Shown here piece by piece: positions 7,754-46,825 of a DNA stretch of 64,000 bases. The DNA is taken from the NCBI RefSeq assembly GCF_044324875.1, contig NZ_CP172185.1. The stretch is one strand, 5' to 3'. This stretch comes from Escherichia coli (GTDB lineage: Bacteria; Pseudomonadota; Gammaproteobacteria; Enterobacterales; Enterobacteriaceae). Made by a program: the position numbers and the translations under genes. Every line of letters starts with the position of its first letter. The stretch's first letter is position 1. The notes under the pieces were generated by a model. The model saw nothing but the letters and a program-made list of their open reading frames with translations. It ran no database searches and had not been told where the DNA came from.

Positions 7754-7859
7754 AGTAAATGCCAAAAAAAAGGAAGGTTTAAATAAACGCTGGAATGAAT
7801 AATTAACGTTATTTACGTGTTATGGGAAAAGTGAAATCAGCTCATAACATACGCTGACA

Positions 7860-8060
7860 GGTGTGGCACATTTGTGCCAGGGAAGAGGGTGAAAATCCCT
7901 CGCAGCCCCCGCTGCTGTAATGCTGACAAACCCGAAAATGCCACTGATCGCGAGATTGGGAAGGTCGGGTGAGGATGACGCTAAGCCAGAAGACCAGTCT
8001 GTCAGTCAATACCAACAACTTCGGTGGGAAGTGGGTTGCCCGGAAGCGTCCGGTAGAGTA
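7860..8060 (+). ncRNA. Cobalamin (B12) riboswitch-like leader
   Basis: Contains GTGCCAGGGAAGAGGGTGAAAATCCC, GCAGCCCCCGCTGCTGTAA, GCCACTG and a B12-box-like AAGCCAGAAGACCAGTC, all resembling conserved cobalamin-riboswitch segments as in the btuB and cob leaders. Confidence 0.7.
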
Positions 8061-12234: not shown

Positions 12235-12310
12235 TGGCTCCTCTGACTGGACTCGAACCAGTGACATACGGATTAACAGTCCGCCGTTCTACCGACTGAA
12301 CTACAGAGGA
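12235..12310 (-). tRNA. asnV: tRNA-Asn (anticodon GUU)
   Basis: Reverse complement reads TCCTCTGTAGTTCAGTCGGTAGAACGGCGGACTGTTAATCCG...GGTTCGAGTCCAGTCAGAGGAGCCA, the E. coli tRNA-Asn sequence; gene name assigned by position. Confidence 0.95.
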
Positions 12311-14642: not shown

Positions 14643-14718
14643 TGGCTCCTCTGACTGGACTCGAACCAGTGACATACGGATTAACAGTCCGCCGTTCTAC
14701 CGACTGAACTACAGAGGA
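14643..14718 (-). tRNA. asnU: tRNA-Asn (anticodon GUU)
   Basis: Same 76-nt tRNA-Asn sequence on the minus strand. Confidence 0.95.
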
Positions 14719-16466: not shown

Positions 16467-16542
16467 TCCTCTGTAGTTCAGTCGGTAGAACGGCGGACTG
16501 TTAATCCGTATGTCACTGGTTCGAGTCCAGTCAGAGGAGCCA
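16467..16542 (+). tRNA. asnW: tRNA-Asn (anticodon GUU)
   Basis: Plus-strand TCCTCTGTAGTTCAGTCGGTAGAACGGCGGACTGTTAATCCGTATGTCACTGGTTCGAGTCCAGTCAGAGGAGCCA. Confidence 0.95.
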
Positions 16543-31801: not shown

Positions 31802-31877
31802 TGGCTCCTCTGACTGGACTCGAACCAGTGACATACGGATTAACAGTCCGCCGTTCTACCGACTGAACTACAGAGGA
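31802..31877 (-). tRNA. asnT: tRNA-Asn (anticodon GUU)
   Basis: Fourth copy of the identical 76-nt tRNA-Asn sequence, minus strand. Confidence 0.95.
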
Positions 31878-33002: not shown

Positions 33003-33038
33003 ACTTGGAATTACTTGGAATATTTTCTTGGAATATTT
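33003..33038. repeat. Three direct CTTGGAAT repeats next to the attachment site (candidate integrase arm-type sites)
   Basis: CTTGGAAT at about 33003, 33013 and 33026, with GGAATATTTT occurring twice; lies between the tRNA-Ser 3' end and the integrase 3' end. Confidence 0.35.
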
Positions 33039-34036
33039 TCAGGTAACGGGACATCAAGTGTTGGTGAAACTTTAACCTTCCGGTCATAGATTAGCACTTG
33101 CCCTTCGGTTTTGTGACCAGAGAAAAGTTGCTTATCCCGGCTGCTTCCTTCATAGTCTGAAATTCCTTTCGCCTTCAGATCATGAAAGGTGAAGTCGGTT
33201 AAAATACCTGAAACTTTGCCTGCGCGATTTCTTGCTTCTACCCACATTTCGTTAAAGCCTTTGTACATATATCGGTTGCCGTATTGATTGCTGATCACAT
33301 AGGCGGATTTTGGTAACTGTTTTGCTTTTTCGACCGCTGCCTGTAATCGTGGACTCCATGCTTTTATCTGTTTTTTCCCTGTTTTCCCTTGCTGGATAAA
33401 GATCCCGTCGTTTCCAATCTGCTCCCATTTCAGCGATAACACATCGGAAACCCTCGCTGCACACAGATAGGCAATTTCCATTGCGATAAAAACAGGAAGG
33501 GGTGCCACGCTTAATACTGCCTGGTATTCTTTGTCGGTTACATATCGTTCGCGGTTTTTGGCCTTGAATTTACTTACTCCTGCACATGGGTTAGCCTTCA
33601 CGTACCCTCGCTCATACCCCCAACTGTAAACACGGGACATACTGCTTTTTTCATGGTTGGCTTGCGTTTTACTCTGTTCCCCTCTTTTGTCCATGTATCG
33701 ACGGATGTGTTCTGGTTTTATGGAATCCGCTGGTACCTTACCGAATACGGCAAGCAACTTTTTTTGATGTTGCAGATAATCTTTTTGTGTTCTTGGACTA
33801 AGGTCACTGTAACAGGCGCTGGCGAGGAATTTTTCCCACAAGCGACCGAATGTCATTGCACGATCGCGATTATTTACAGTTTCCTCATACTTTTTCCATA
33901 AAGCAGCTAAACCATCCTTGATGGCGGTTAGTGTTACAGATTCTCTGGATGTTGGTTTCCATACATAACTATATTTATTTGGGTATACATTTGGAGGTAA
34001 TTTTTCGTGTTCAGGATTTTTCCTTCGTCTTCCCAT
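33011..34036 (-). CDS. int: Tyrosine recombinase (phage integrase)
   Basis: 341 aa ORF adjacent to the tRNA and reading toward it; C-terminal region has tyrosine-recombinase-like R...HxxR...Y spacing (…FTFHDLKAKGISDYEGS…HKTEGQVLIYDRK…). Confidence 0.85.
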   Translation of the reverse strand: MGRRRKNPEHEKLPPNVYPNKYSYVWKPTSRESVTLTAIKDGLAALWKKYEETVNNRDRAMTFGRLWEKFLASACYSDLSPRTQKDYLQHQKKLLAVFGKVPADSIKPEHIRRYMDKRGEQSKTQANHEKSSMSRVYSWGYERGYVKANPCAGVSKFKAKNRERYVTDKEYQAVLSVAPLPVFIAMEIAYLCAARVSDVLSLKWEQIGNDGIFIQQGKTGKKQIKAWSPRLQAAVEKAKQLPKSAYVISNQYGNRYMYKGFNEMWVEARNRAGKVSGILTDFTFHDLKAKGISDYEGSSRDKQLFSGHKTEGQVLIYDRKVKVSPTLDVPLPENIPRKYSK

Positions 34037-37692: not shown

Positions 37693-37861
37693 AATGGCAG
37701 CCTCCACGTTGAGTATTGATAACTCACCACCGAGGCTTTCCACGACCATAATGGTGGTGAGACGTACAGGGGTGGAAATACCGGTCAACGTAGAACCCGG
37801 CCAGCCTTGCGGCTGCCCTGCACGCCCCACCATAATCTGAATGTGGCTGTGCTTCACGCAT

Positions 37862-37886
37862 AAAAAAACCGCCTGAGCGCGGTTGT
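37862..37886 (-). terminator. Intrinsic terminator on the minus strand upstream of rha
   Basis: Minus strand reads AACCGCGCTCAGGCGGTT followed by a U-run (plus strand TAAAAAAACCGCCTGAGCGCGGTT). Confidence 0.45.
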
Positions 37887-38501
37887 GCGCTACGTTTGAC
37901 TTCGGGTTTCCACGCCCGGCACCCGGTTTATGAGGTGCAGGTGCACTATAATTCCACCCGTACTGGTTTTCAATAGCTACATTCAACATTTTCTCTTACC
38001 TTTCATCACCGAAGTGAACTTTGTTGATGCGGTGCCAGGTGCCTCCAGGTGACGTTAACCAGTTAACAATTAACGCCGGATACAGAGAATCCACCCATAA
38101 CTCTGTTTTTGGTTTTAACTGTTCCACGTGCGATCAGCCGCATTCACCACATCACAAAATTCACTTTAAAAAGGGCGGCAGAGCAGTCACGGAGTAAAAC
38201 TGATACCGCAAAACGTCACCAGAAAATTGATAACAGATGGCGTTGCAGCGGGGTTGTCACTCAGGCGCATGGTCAACCTGACAACCCGGTGTCCTCAAGG
38301 GGAAGGGAACCCCGCCATGCTTACCGCCGCGCCATTTCGCGGAGTGCCACAACCGGAAGCGGACGGTCGACGAAAATTTAACGACAGGCTATATATGAAC
38401 CAGCTACCTCGCCGTGCGCTTTCGTGTTGTGTGCCTGCTTTTAACCACGTCAGGCGAGGTGGTATCCTCTGAGGGGTCTGTTACCCGAGAGGAAATTGGT
38501 T

Positions 38502-39121: not shown

Positions 39122-39406
39122 TTATGTTACAGGGAACTGTCGGCGGGTATGGACTACGTTTACTATTTCAATACTTGAGGTTGTCACGCGGTACAGAATT
39201 ATATAATTGGGGTGAGCCACAATCTCACGTAAGCCTGGCACTCTGTCGCTTGGGGGGTATAAATACGGATGTTCGGATAATGGCAGCACACACCCCCTTA
39301 ATCGCTGCCATAAGCGTTCTGCCGCATCTATGTCGAAACGAGCAATGTAACTAGTTATATCATCCAGGTCGGTATCTGCGCTTTCAGGCCATAACACAGG
39401 TAACAT
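39122..39406 (-). CDS. RelE/ParE-family type II toxin
   Basis: 94 aa ORF abutting the stop of an upstream small ORF; typical size and basic C-terminal region for RelE/ParE-family toxins. Confidence 0.7.
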   Translation of the reverse strand: MLPVLWPESADTDLDDITSYIARFDIDAAERLWQRLRGCVLPLSEHPYLYPPSDRVPGLREIVAHPNYIILYRVTTSSIEIVNVVHTRRQFPVT

Positions 39407-39598
39407 TTACTGTTCACTCCGTTCCTTGCGTATTTTAGCAAAGCGTTCTGCCATTCTGCGCTCAACTTCGTCATGGGGAATTGCTGGGCGCGGATCTGCA
39501 AGGCTTGCAGCTACTTTGGCTCGCAGCCATTCGTTGTAACTGTTTTCTTGTTCAATAGTTTCAAACTCAGAAACCATTGGTGAAAGGGCCGTATTCAT
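39407..39598 (-). CDS. Putative antitoxin partner of the RelE/ParE-like toxin
   Basis: Start at internal MNTALSPMVSEF... with GGAGG 7 nt upstream; 63 aa acidic protein directly upstream of and abutting the toxin gene. Confidence 0.55.
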   Translation of the reverse strand: MNTALSPMVSEFETIEQENSYNEWLRAKVAASLADPRPAIPHDEVERRMAERFAKIRKERSEQ

Positions 39599-39627
39599 GG
39601 CACACCTCCGTCTGTGTATGGTGGTCA

Positions 39628-40026
39628 TTATGCCCGATGCCCTTTCCGGGCAGCGAGCCATCTTTCAATTGTGCGATCCATTAACTCTTTTTTGTCTTTC
39701 ATCTCCTGAAGCATTTGCTCTTGATCTTCCTCTGGAAATGCCTCAAATGTTTGAAGTAGCTCCTTTTGCCTAGGAGTTATTTTTATTATATCTTGTATTC
39801 TGTCATTTTTTTCTTCATTTAACGGTAAGAAGAACCAATACTGAGGATATCCTGTTGCTTCAGATAGTTTATCTAGATTAGCTGCTGTAGGGCTTGAGAT
39901 ACCACAAACCCATCTTTGAACGGATTGTTGAGTAATGCCAATTCTGCGCGCAAGTTCTGCCTGGCTCCAGCCTGTTACCAACAAAAGCTTCCTAATTCTA
40001 AGAGCACTAATTTCGAGTACACCCAT
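39628..40026 (-). CDS. XRE-family HTH regulator (repressor-like, paralog A)
   Basis: ORF track frame 39628..40101; HTH segment SQAELARRIGITQQSVQRW; C-terminal 45 aa paralogous to the neighbouring gene; start codon uncertain. Confidence 0.6.
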   Translation of the reverse strand: MGVLEISALRIRKLLLVTGWSQAELARRIGITQQSVQRWVCGISSPTAANLDKLSEATGYPQYWFFLPLNEEKNDRIQDIIKITPRQKELLQTFEAFPEEDQEQMLQEMKDKKELMDRTIERWLAARKGHRA

Positions 40027-40060
40027 CTGATATATCTTGTTTTTAAGAGTATGCTTCCCA

Positions 40061-40432
40061 TCAGGCGCGGCGACCTTGCTGCGCCAACCAACGTGCGACA
40101 AAATCTTCCATTGCTTCTTTTTTGTTTCTTAGTTCTTTTATGATCTCTTGCTGTTCATTATCAGGAAATGCACTAAATATTTGTAGCAATTCCAGCTGGT
40201 TAGGGGTTAATGCTATAGCTCTTGATGATGGAGACTCTGTTATGTCTTCTGGCTCAATATCAAGATAACCCCCTGGCATCCCATATGTTTGTTCAATACG
40301 TCTAGCTGCTTTTTCGCCAAACGTAGCCTTACCGCTCATTAACTGAGATAAGTAACTTTTCTCTTTGGGTGGCAAAGTTCTGTCTTTGAACCACTCTTTG
40401 AGGCGTAAACGCCGAATCTCTCTTGTTTCCAT
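40061..40432 (-). CDS. HTH regulator (CI-like repressor lacking a peptidase domain, paralog B)
   Basis: 123 aa; C-terminal segment LTPNQLELLQIFSAFPDNEQQEIIKELRNKKEAMEDFVARWLAQ resembles that of paralog A; divergent from the Cro-like gene. Confidence 0.65.
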   Translation of the reverse strand: METREIRRLRLKEWFKDRTLPPKEKSYLSQLMSGKATFGEKAARRIEQTYGMPGGYLDIEPEDITESPSSRAIALTPNQLELLQIFSAFPDNEQQEIIKELRNKKEAMEDFVARWLAQQGRRA

Positions 40433-40535
40433 ACATGCATTATCTTTAGTAATTGCGAAATAAGCAAATACTTGACTGGTTTATTTAGTTACGTATAAAC
40501 TTTTGCTTGCACTAAAGTATGTTGAGATCGAAATC

Positions 40536-40823
40536 ATGACTCTAAAGGAATTCATCAAATCATTAAAAACTGGAGAAGCAAAAAAATTTGCTGCCAACCT
40601 TGGTGTGTCTCCGTCCTTCTTGTCTCAAATGGCATCTGGCAGTTCACCAGTGTCTCCTGTTCGTGCGTTAATGATAGAAGCAGAAACTGCAGGGCATGTT
40701 ACAAGAAGAGAGTTGAGGCCGAATGACTGGGATCTTATATGGCCGGAATACACCGGAATTACGCCCCCTTCAAGTCATAAATATGAGCTTAACACCAAAA
40801 AAGTTGATGGGGTTGATTCATGA
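40536..40823 (+). CDS. Cro/YdaS-like small DNA-binding protein
   Basis: Start at internal MTLKEFIKSLKTGEAKKFAANLGVSPSFLSQM...; divergent from the repressor genes. Confidence 0.55.
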   Translation: MTLKEFIKSLKTGEAKKFAANLGVSPSFLSQMASGSSPVSPVRALMIEAETAGHVTRRELRPNDWDLIWPEYTGITPPSSHKYELNTKKVDGVDS

Positions 40824-41245
40824 AAATCAAACATGAGCACATCCGCATGGCGATGAATGCCTGGGCGCATCCGGACGGCGAAAAAGTACCGGCTGCGAAA
40901 ATTACCAAAGCGTATTTCGAACTGGGTATGACGTTCCCGGAACTGTACGACGACAGCCACCCTGAAGCCCTGGCGCGTAATACCCAGAAAATTTTCCGCT
41001 GGGTAGAGAAAGACACCCCTGATGCAGTTGAAAAAATTCAGGCGTTGTTACCAGCGATCGAAAAGGCAATGCCACCTTTGCTGGTGGCCAGAATGCGCAG
41101 CCACAGTTCAGCTTATTTTCGGGAGCTGGTGGAGATGCGGGAACGACTGGTGAGAGACGCTGATGATTTTGTCGCGGTGGCAATAGCTGGCTTCAACCAG
41201 ATCAACCGTGGTGGCCCGGCCGGAAATGCTGTGGCTGTGCATTGA
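40820..41245 (+). CDS. YdaT-like / CII-position early regulator
   Basis: 141 aa ORF overlapping the Cro-like stop; gene order resembles Rac ydaS-ydaT-ydaU-ydaV. Confidence 0.4.
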   Translation: MKIKHEHIRMAMNAWAHPDGEKVPAAKITKAYFELGMTFPELYDDSHPEALARNTQKIFRWVEKDTPDAVEKIQALLPAIEKAMPPLLVARMRSHSSAYFRELVEMRERLVRDADDFVAVAIAGFNQINRGGPAGNAVAVH

Positions 41246-44549: not shown

Positions 44550-45215
44550 ATGACTATTGCTGATTTCAAACGGCCTAAATTGGAGCTCCCGAACGGGGCA
44601 AACAAACTACTACTGCACTCTTGCTGTGCTCCATGTTCCGGTGAAGTGATGGAGGCGCTTCAGGCCTCGGGAATCGACTACACCATCTTTTTCTACAACC
44701 CGAACATTCATCCTCAGAAAGAGTATTTAATTCGTAAGGATGAAAATATTCGCTTTGCTGAACAACACGGCGTGCCGTTTATCGATGCTGATTACGACAC
44801 CGACAACTGGTTTGAACGTGCCAAAGGAATGGAATGGGAGCCTGAGAGGGGGATCCGTTGTACCATGTGTTTTGACATGCGTTTTGAGCGGACAGCGTTG
44901 TACGCTGCTGAAAATGGTTTCAGTGTGATCAGCAGTTCACTGGGCATTTCACGCTGGAAAAATATGCAGCAGGTTAACGAGTGTGGGCGGCGAGCTGTTG
45001 CGCATTATCCGGGTATGGTGTACTGGGATTATAACTGGCGCAAGCAGGGCGGCTCGTCCCGTATGATTGAAATCAGCAAGCGCGAAAAATTCTATCAGCA
45101 GGAATATTGTGGCTGTGTGTATTCTCTGCGCGATACCAATCTACACCGCAAATCTCAGGGACGCCCTCTTATAAAAATTGGCCAACTCCACTACGGAAAA
45201 GAAGAGAAGGAGTGA
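44550..45215 (+). CDS. DUF208 / QueH-like protein (putative B12-independent epoxyqueuosine reductase)
   Basis: 221 aa with N-terminal [14 protein letters not shown] motif and further conserved Cys (…[10 protein letters not shown]…, …EYCGCVYS…), resembling what I remember of the DUF208/QueH family; own promoter-like region upstream. Confidence 0.55.
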
Positions 45216-45451
45216 TTTTATGGATCACCTTTCTGATTGATTTCATATTGGCGAGGTGACGGGAGTTAAGTAGAATTGCTGCGGGTGCTTGAGGCTATCT
45301 GCCTCGGGCATGAACACCAACGGCAGATAGAGAAAAGCCCCAGTTAACATTATGCGTCCTGCAAGACGCTTAACATTAATCTGAGGCAGAATCTATGTCT
45401 AGCAAATGTAGGTTAGCCTCTTACGTGCCGAAAGGCAAGGAGAAGCAGGCT

Positions 45452-45607
45452 ATGAAGCAGCAAAAGGCGATGTTAGTCGCCCTGATCGTCATCTGTATTA
45501 CCGTCATTGTGACGGCACTGGTAACGAGGAAAGACCTCTGCGAGGTACGAATCCGAACCGGCCAGACGGAGGTCGCTGTCTTCACAGCTTACGAACCTGA
45601 GGAGTAA
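45452..45607 (+). CDS. hok: Hok/Gef-family type I toxin
   Basis: MKQQKAMLVALIVICITVIVTALVTRKDLCEVRIRTGQTEVAVFTAYEPEE, 51 aa, near-identical to chromosomal Hok/Gef peptides; the ORF track frame extends in-frame upstream to 45395. Confidence 0.8.
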   Translation: MKQQKAMLVALIVICITVIVTALVTRKDLCEVRIRTGQTEVAVFTAYEPEE

Positions 45608-45711: not shown

Positions 45712-46065
45712 TTATTTATTACTAATACATGATTTAATTCCTTGAATCCTCTTGTTTTTTCCATTGGTAGGATCTAACACACCTCGAAGAGAATAAAAAT
45801 CAATAGTGGTAGAGCCGTCTGCTGACTTATAAATGTCGGCATTATCTGCAACTGCTAATACACTGTAATATTTACCAATTTTTTGAGAAGTGATAGTATA
45901 CAAGAGAGGTACACGTTGCCACTCACTGAGAATGCATTCTTGTATTTCTTGTGGTGGAGAATTTGTTTTAAATGAAATGATAATATCCTGCTCTTCTCTA
46001 TAATTATAAGGGTTTACGCATCCAGAAATTGCGAAAGAAAACAGAAGAATAATGATCCTGTTCAT
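45712..46065 (-). CDS. Small lipoprotein of unknown function
   Basis: ORF track frame 45712..46095; start at internal MNRIIILLFSFAISGC (signal peptide plus lipobox-like ISGC); gene is AT-rich by eye. Confidence 0.55.
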   Translation of the reverse strand: MNRIIILLFSFAISGCVNPYNYREEQDIIISFKTNSPPQEIQECILSEWQRVPLLYTITSQKIGKYYSVLAVADNADIYKSADGSTTIDFYSLRGVLDPTNGKNKRIQGIKSCISNK

Positions 46066-46127
46066 TTTTTTGCCTCTTTTGAAAATATTACTCAATTATT
46101 TTAGTTGCGGTGTGTTATAAGCATTAA

Positions 46128-46427
46128 CTATAAAATATTAGATTCATAATTTTGTCCGCCGTGGTAAACGCCAGCGATAAAGACTTTATTGCCATCAACG
46201 GCAAAAGCAATAATCGTTCTGTGTCGGAAATGAGTTACCCGCATCCCCTGGCGAATATCATCGCGTTTATTGCCCCGATGCGGGAATGTAGAAAACCCAT
46301 CAAGATAATCAAGAAGCGCATTGGCATAATTGTCAGCAATGACGCTTCTTGCTTTCTCCGTTATATATCTGTGCAGGTTTATTATCTGCTGTTCGGCCTC
46401 GGGGGTAATGATGACTTCATATGTCAT
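46128..46427 (-). CDS. parE: ParE/RelE-family type II toxin
   Basis: 99 aa MTYEVIITPEAEQQIINLHRYI...; immediately downstream of a ParD-like gene. Confidence 0.7.
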   Translation of the reverse strand: MTYEVIITPEAEQQIINLHRYITEKARSVIADNYANALLDYLDGFSTFPHRGNKRDDIRQGMRVTHFRHRTIIAFAVDGNKVFIAGVYHGGQNYESNIL

Positions 46428-46432
46428 GCAGA

Positions 46433-46690
46433 TTACTTCCCGGATCGAATCGCGGCGCGAACCTGTGAAATGGAGCGTCCGTTGTTTGGATTTTCGCGGA
46501 TAGAATCAAGAGAGGGGGCGGCTGAATGCGTTAACCACGCTTCGATTGCTTTATCGCGCTCATTCAGTGCACGAAGCCCTTCACGAATGACCTCGCTTTC
46601 TGAAGCATAGGCACCGGAAGCCACACGGGCGCGCACCATGTCAGCCATCTCGTTAGTTAATGTAATGCTGAATTGTTGGGTTGTACGCAT
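46433..46690 (-). CDS. parD: ParD-like antitoxin
   Basis: Start at internal MRTTQQFSITLTNEMADMVRARVASGAYASESEVIREGLRAL... (ParD-like N-terminus); 5 nt upstream of parE. Confidence 0.65.
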   Translation of the reverse strand: MRTTQQFSITLTNEMADMVRARVASGAYASESEVIREGLRALNERDKAIEAWLTHSAAPSLDSIRENPNNGRSISQVRAAIRSGK

Positions 46691-46825
46691 GGTAAACCTC
46701 ACGGAGTAGGATAGAACACTATTCGATGATAGCACGCTGCCTGTTGACGACAACAGAAATCAGAGACAATATTGCCGCACGCCAGCCTGAACAACTGGCA
46801 CCTGCTGCGCCAGCAGAGAAAACAA

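Follow-up and report, generated by a model that had tools for sequence, protein, structure and literature searches.

Characterised ParDE toxin-antitoxin pairs share a common plan. In the Caulobacter (ParDE1, 3KXE), Mesorhizobium (5CEG/6X0A), M. tuberculosis (ParDE1, 8C24) and RK2 systems, the antitoxin gene comes first, ParD is a ribbon-helix-helix protein with a neutralising tail, and ParE is about 100 amino acids (aa) long. ParE toxins are also found in prophages: stabilisation of the prophage has been shown for ParE-CopA of CP4So (PMC8706911), and the paaR2-paaA2-parE2 genes of CP-933P lie with the Cro/CII-like ydaS/ydaT in a CI/Cro/CII-like immunity circuit (PMC8630535). Phages also encode small outer-membrane lipoproteins that face the periplasm and block FhuA (Llp and Cor) or LptD (Rtp45), and in T5-like and T1-like phages these exclusion lipoproteins are encoded beside the receptor-binding genes (PMC8594841, PMC9586334, PMC12685063). 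The window described here is a 64,000-nucleotide (nt) stretch of an Escherichia coli chromosome (contig NZ_CP172185.1, assembly GCF_044324875.1). It contains a lambdoid prophage in which a parD-parE operon is followed by an AT-rich gene for a predicted outer-membrane lipoprotein (Table 1). The explanation we favour, and consider reasonably probable, is that two independent modules, parDE and a lipoprotein gene from phage tail modules, have been joined as one minus-strand cassette. The ParDE pair is ordinary and was known and annotated before; the lipoprotein adds a new, relocated member to a tail-module lipoprotein family that is still uncharacterised.

The cassette runs from position 46690, where the parD start codon begins, to position 45712, where the stop codon of the lipoprotein gene ends. 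The original prediction had proposed a second ParD/ParE pair here and suggested assigning its family with hidden Markov models, and both proteins do score above the curated Pfam cut-offs. ParD reaches 32.1 bits with PF03693 (ParD_antitoxin; cut-off 21) and 53.8 bits with NCBIfam TIGR02606 (cut-off 46.2), and it matches phrog_6494 (“antitoxin”) at 1.7e-56. ParE reaches 39.4 bits with PF05016 (ParE_toxin; cut-off 23) and matches phrog_5232 (“toxin”) at 7e-40. All PDB sequence matches of ParD are ParD antitoxins (3kxe_C, 7ycv, 7b22, 6x0a_a, and 8c24_C) and span residues 6-51. This part of the protein (approximately residues 6-51) is the predicted DNA-binding N-terminus, with the predicted toxin-binding tail on its C-terminal side. 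The antitoxin gene comes first, parE starts 5 nt past the parD stop codon on the same strand, and the Shine-Dalgarno-like sequence of parE (GGGAAG) is inside the 3′ end of parD. Judged by its sequence, parD-parE is a complete standard type II toxin-antitoxin operon. PGAP already labels the pair as a ParD antitoxin and a RelE/ParE toxin, with ParD annotated as WP_001260977.1 in three E. coli records. ParD is 100% identical at every related locus tested, ParE is full length (99 aa) in 12 of the 12 loci compared, and the ratio of nonsynonymous to synonymous substitution rates (dN/dS) of parE is 0.11-0.15.

By homology with known pairs, ParD would repress its own promoter through the ribbon-helix-helix domain and neutralise ParE through its C-terminal tail. 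Loss of ParD would then leave free ParE to poison DNA gyrase (PMC11925232). In a prophage, such a pair would most likely act as an addiction or stabilisation module. Since PF05016 and the NCBI name “RelE/ParE family toxin” span both activities, the toxin might instead be a RelE-type ribosome-dependent mRNA endonuclease. This is quite unlikely: a profile built from 18 ParE homologues retrieves from the PDB only ParE chains of ParDE complexes (6x0a at 1e-6, 7ycs, 5ceg, 8c24, and 3kxe), with no RelE-type chain (RelE, YoeB, or HigB) at E≤1, and the partner is a TIGR02606 ParD-type antitoxin.

Several points weigh against a working gyrase poison. ParE has no match in NCBIfam, and the best match of its single sequence in the PDB is weak (E 0.041). 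Its C-terminus is YESNIL (46128-46142, minus strand) where all other alleles have YE[AST]DFL. Finally, membership of the family is no proof of toxicity, because among bona fide ParE proteins at least one, PaParE1, is non-toxic (PMC11925232). The YESNIL ending is confined to loci with a 99-100%-identical lipoprotein allele. This divergent C-terminal pentapeptide, along with the fact that many E. coli prophages are cryptic, could suggest that the prophage is defective and the whole cassette non-functional cargo in decay. Of all the explanations considered, this is the least probable. The original prediction had allowed for disrupted remnants, and what is found instead is three full-length open reading frames (ORFs) with plausible ribosome-binding sites, dN/dS values of 0.09-0.15 that mark all three as being under purifying selection, and an invariant ParD, in a prophage whose lysis, head, and tail modules are complete up to the edge of the window.

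The promoter-like site of parDE is 36 nt upstream of the parD ATG, and the palindrome that overlaps its -35 element is a candidate ParD operator. When the region upstream of parD was searched with a repeat finder (8-nt minimum arms), no operator-like inverted repeat was found, which is a point against the ParDE reading; the arms of the palindrome are below the minimum set. At the other end of the operon, the 62-nt spacer between parE and the lipoprotein gene has neither a predicted promoter nor a predicted terminator, so in the lysogen transcription from the parDE promoter probably extends into the lipoprotein gene as a third cistron. The same spacing (~62 nt) is seen in the second E. coli allele. 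The stem-loop beyond the lipoprotein gene is likely to be the end of both the hok and the lipoprotein transcripts.

Table 1. Features of the window, with positions counted from its first base.
Feature	Position	Strand	Remarks
parD	46433-46690	-	ribbon-helix-helix antitoxin, 85 aa
parE	46128-46427	-	toxin, ParE branch of the RelE/ParE superfamily, 99 aa
parE-lipoprotein spacer	46066-46127	-	62 nt; AGAGG ribosome-binding site 8 nt before ATG
AT-rich lipoprotein gene	45712-46065	-	117-aa precursor, ~102 aa mature; phrog_914
parDE promoter-like site	46726-46753	-	TTGTCG-16 nt-TATCAT with TG extension; consensus match only
Palindrome, candidate ParD operator	46741-46756		CTGTTG-ACGA-CAACAG; read directly, 6-bp arms, overlaps -35 element
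Perfect 9-bp stem-loop	45615-45636		GGCGAGGGA / TCCCTCGCC; between convergent hok and lipoprotein genes; no canonical U-tract
hok/sok type I locus	45283-45607	+	hok coding sequence 45455-45607; sok Rfam match 45283-45457
Other ParE system	39122-40101	-	ParE2 39122-39406; PaaA2 39407-39598; PaaR2-like helix-turn-helix regulator 39628-40101
ORFs presumed to be ydaS/ydaT-type	40503-41245	+	two ORFs, divergent from the PaaR2-like regulator
Integrase	33011-34036		lambdoid prophage adjoining yeeJ
C4 antisense RNA, isrK, DicF	37750-38224	-	Rfam matches, early-left region
QueH	44550-45215	+	epoxyqueuosine reductase
Four tRNA genes	12238-12310, 14646-14718, 16467-16539, 31805-31877		chromosomal part
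Cobalamin riboswitch	7842-8016		

The lipoprotein gene had been described as visibly AT-rich, and its GC content is indeed only 33.3%, where the prophage has 49.7% and the flanks have 49-52%. It shows the moron trait in the sense of Hendrix and Juhala, that of an extra gene with a deviant base composition that separates genes adjoining each other in related phages. The mechanically called ORF extends to a TTG at 46095, while translation likely starts at the ATG at 46065; this codon has an AGAGG ahead of it and yields a protein of 117 aa, the annotated length in related genomes. The precursor has a signal peptide, MNRIIILLFSFAISG followed by C, that ends in a lipobox, whose I-S-G-C motif places the cysteine at position 16. 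G15-C16, C44, and C113 are invariant in the family alignments, and C44 and C113 might form a disulfide. The residue at +2 is Val in the window and V, A, M, or T in the aligned members (K in a paralogue found between genes I and J), but never Asp, and from the +2 rule (Lol avoidance) the protein is predicted to be sorted to the outer membrane. Compared with the second E. coli allele, its dN/dS is 0.09. The only family matched is phrog_914 (3.2e-25), annotated as “unknown function”, with no match in Pfam (E≤0.01), NCBIfam, or PADLOC; no PADLOC model matches ParD or ParE either. The AlphaFold2 (AF2) model has a mean predicted local distance difference test (pLDDT) score of 81.7 and a beta-alpha-beta4-alpha fold.

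That the cassette is composite can be seen from its distribution in 5426 complete E. coli genomes. The parDE pair is found in 364 of these, always on the chromosome, and it is also present in Stx2a phages such as the inducible ArgO145. The lipoprotein gene occurs in just six of the 5426 (~86% nucleotide identity), as well as in another E. coli assembly and in six contigs from IMG/VR. These carriers share the layout RusA-DUF968-ydfU/parD-parE-lipoprotein, with hok beyond on every contig that reaches that far. The lipoprotein gene is missing from approximately 358 of the 364 parDE loci and from hok-ydfU loci, and homology to the parDE-only loci ends within ~15 nt of the parE stop codon. Comparison of the two E. 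coli alleles shows a synonymous divergence (dS) that rises from 0.016 in parD to 0.17 in parE and 0.76 in the lipoprotein gene, and the cassette is therefore mosaic. No flanking direct repeats marking an insertion were detected around it by the repeat finder. When the region was compared with phage records by megablast, the flanks and parDE were matched and the lipoprotein gene was not, and a tblastn search with the lipoprotein returned only a 29% relative in Serratia phage OS31. Among some 35 distant lipoprotein homologues, none adjoins parDE.

This distribution also bears on the idea that parD, parE, and the lipoprotein gene make up a three-component system, in which the lipoprotein would modulate the toxin-antitoxin pair or serve as its effector. 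The idea is favoured by the E. coli clade, where the genes are without exception adjacent and co-oriented, with the last two ~62 nt apart and no predicted internal promoter or terminator. It is nevertheless very improbable, given the ~358 of 364 parDE genomes that do without the lipoprotein and the ~35 distant homologues that are never beside parDE. In addition, the dS of the lipoprotein gene is about 4-fold off that of parE and 50-fold off that of parD, which indicates separate histories, and an exported lipoprotein and a cytoplasmic gyrase poison would be in different compartments. The lipoprotein gene is cargo independent of parDE. We suggest that in the E. coli clade it moved from the tail-tip/tail-fibre cluster of lambda-like phages to the 3′ end of parE.

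Such an origin is consistent with where the relatives are. A word-indexed profile search returned 68 clusters. Those with an organism name are all from Enterobacterales; nearly all are unnamed or “hypothetical protein”, and two carry apparently spurious lipoprotein names (LpoB and Lpp). An exhaustive profile search yielded 93 representative clusters at 50% identity, nearly all of 110-125 aa, and no literature was found on the RefSeq accessions or on “phrog_914”. Outside the E. coli parDE clade, every homologue with a readable context lies within a lambda-like tail module; two others are on contigs too short to tell. The gene is inserted between M and L in Rahnella, Citrobacter, and several viral contigs, between H and M at one locus (L030), between K and I in Serratia phage OS31, Serratia prophages, and Escherichia phage Fraca, and just upstream of I at another (L054). 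In Pantoea-type prophages and viral contigs, it directly follows or precedes the side tail fibre gene at the prophage end. Between I and J, there is the 112-aa paralogue WP_001332187.1 (E. coli 214-4, NZ_CP025840.1; L050 7488-7826, minus strand), which matches phrog_914 at 7e-33 and is present in 337 (6%) of the complete E. coli genomes; the 214-4 prophage carries both this protein and the parDE-linked paralogue. The sequence clades of the family track these genomic contexts. The GC content of the gene is below that of at least one flank in every locus, and below both flanks in all but one. In the two relatives that were scanned (L004 and L008), promoter-like and terminator-like sites flank the lipoprotein gene. 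In two Pantoea-type loci, ImpB/MucB/SamB-type polymerase or UmuD-like genes are carried as cargo at the prophage end, adjoining the phrog_914 gene (L017 4797-5915 and L041 4357-4921, both plus strand).

What the lipoprotein does is harder to say. The original prediction had offered surface exclusion, and by analogy with Cor, Llp, and Rtp45, a lipoprotein at the envelope would block the adsorption or DNA entry of incoming phages. The idea is supported by the tail-module position of the relatives, which mirrors that of the exclusion lipoproteins of T5-like and T1-like phages and of cor in phi80 (gene order J-gp22-gp23-cor-fibre). We regard envelope-level (surface or superinfection) exclusion as a plausible role whose chances are somewhat below even, and it is the least secure step in our explanation.

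A number of observations weigh against such a role. The structural neighbours of the model are generic (KA1, TBP-like, helix-grip, BamC-N, and Flpp3), Llp was not found among its top structural matches, and PADLOC, as noted above, has no match for it. An identity with Cor (phrog_1119) was rejected, as the hhalign alignment with phi80 Cor covers only columns 1-47 and is dominated by the signal peptide and lipobox. In Pantoea-type prophages, a true Cor (phrog_1119, 53% identical to phi80 Cor) is encoded elsewhere in addition to the phrog_914 lipoprotein. The family occurs with both lambda-type and phi80-type J C-termini, which are mutually unalignable. A block of the phage's own J receptor was dropped as a candidate function, since the phi80-type J C-termini of the M/L clade cannot be aligned with those of the E. 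coli carriers. These carriers also have differing head, tail, and morphogenesis modules, so the lipoprotein is not tied to one receptor-binding protein.

Moreover, morons unrelated to exclusion, such as lom, also sit beside tail fibres. The lipoprotein might then be a lysogenic-conversion or fitness factor for the host, expressed like lom and bor and involved in Bor-like serum resistance, adhesion, protection from envelope stress, or permeability. This alternative deserves attention but is unlikely. Lambda Bor (PF06291) was tried as an assignment and rejected, there being no match to it or to any other Pfam family at E≤0.01, and the repeated insertion at the tail tip (H/M, M/L, K/I, and I/J) in many lineages and in the isolated phage Fraca points to a role centred on the phage. 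Returning to exclusion, a bolder version is that phrog_914 forms a new and structurally distinct class of phage-encoded, phage-excluding envelope proteins whose target is independent of J, and which has here been captured by parDE and come under toxin-antitoxin promoter control in the lysogen. A J-independent target would explain the coexistence with Cor and with unrelated J types, but we hold this version to be more doubtful still than the conversion factor.

A different protein was noticed in the Rahnella bonaserana prophage (GCA_039672815.1; L004 14795-15082, plus strand). In the order J, ~100 aa, ~220 aa, [slot], side tail fibre, the slot is held by cor in phi80 and Pantoea-type prophages, and here it is filled by a protein of 95 aa whose C-terminal domain is of the TonB type (PF03544). 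This protein could be a TonB-box decoy, and so a different way of shutting TonB-dependent phage receptors.

The prophage has three toxin systems in all, as had been predicted. The first is a hok/sok type I locus that is convergent with the parD-parE-lipoprotein cassette. Hok matches HOK_GEF (PF01848) at 1.5e-23, and sok is a full-length match to RF01794 with 114.9 bits, against a gathering score of 59. The second is what the original prediction had called the first RelE/ParE pair (39122-39598, minus strand). It does hold a ParE toxin, but the system is better described as the three-gene paaR2-paaA2-parE2 of O157 CP-933P. Its toxin is near-identical to the solved E. coli O157 ParE2 (5cw7_B, 2.6e-58) and its antitoxin to the solved O157 PaaA2 (3zbe_A, 2.2e-34), and the ORF directly upstream of PaaA2 matches transcriptional-regulator and repressor PHROGs. 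The two divergent plus-strand ORFs beyond it are presumably of the ydaS/ydaT type, judging from their position and from the YdaT sequence. The layout around the regulator and these ORFs is that of the CP-933P immunity circuit (PMC8630535). The third system is ParDE, which is distinct in sequence from the second, as claimed: ParE has no significant pairwise similarity to ParE2 (BLASTP E 0.16), and no alignment was obtained between ParD and PaaA2. As neither the toxins nor the antitoxins can be aligned, the two systems would work separately, and cross-neutralisation is unlikely. Like ParDE here, paaR2-paaA2-parE2 of O157:H7 CP-933P is a ParE toxin system in a lambdoid prophage, but it has three components, its PaaA2 is disordered and has no domain for binding DNA, and its regulator, encoded in the immunity region, is CI-like.

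The cassette lies in a variable stretch of the prophage, with replication genes on one side and DUF968-RusA-Q on the other. The local order is QueH, hok/sok, the three minus-strand genes, a ydfU-like ORF, and DUF968. The neighbours (QueH, hok, ydfU-like, DUF968, RusA, and Q) are all on the plus strand, and the cassette opposes the early-right operon, in agreement with the earlier remark that it runs against the flow. QueH, a tRNA modification enzyme upstream of hok (PF02677, 1e-65), is itself phage cargo. Up to the end of the window, the plus strand carries the early-right, lysis, HK97-type head, and lambda-type tail genes. In the early-left region, the matches to C4 antisense RNA, isrK, and DicF are side by side. 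Outside the prophage, identity to complete E. coli genomes reaches 99.1% over the cobT-cbl-nac region, and the four tRNA genes, with identical Rfam scores of 72.6 bits, and the cobalamin riboswitch look like ordinary chromosomal content.

ParDE in this prophage is a further case of toxin-antitoxin modules accumulating in E. coli prophages. As a by-product, its analysis draws attention to phrog_914, a family without a name whose members are predicted outer-membrane lipoproteins of ~115 aa. Should these proteins turn out to block receptors or phage entry, the list of exclusion factors would grow beyond Cor, Llp, and Rtp45, and the family would bear on the prediction of phage host range and on the choice of therapeutic phages. 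The parDE-lipoprotein clade, in which the gene stands apart from any tail module, offers a convenient natural test case.

Compared with the characterised ParDE pairs, the pair in the window has the same antitoxin-first order, but it is distant from them (best profile E 1e-6), and its parE is followed by a gene for an exported protein. That protein resembles the lambda morons bor and lom in that all are encoded by low-GC accessory genes for envelope proteins with a patchy occurrence among related phages. However, Lom is a beta-barrel rather than a lipoprotein, and unlike these morons, the lipoprotein gene has no predicted promoter of its own in the window. Closer in kind are Cor, Llp, and Rtp45, which like the phrog_914 proteins are phage-encoded lipoproteins with an outer-membrane sorting signal, encoded in or next to tail-tip and fibre genes. 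As these do, the phrog_914 lipoprotein could act on an outer-membrane receptor from its periplasmic face (PMC9586334, PMC12685063). It differs from them in its size and fold, with ~102 aa in the mature form and an alpha+beta architecture against the 6-8 kDa of Cor, Llp, and Rtp45, and it does not belong with Llp and Rtp45. In the window, its gene is also outside the tail module, unlike the genes of these three proteins.

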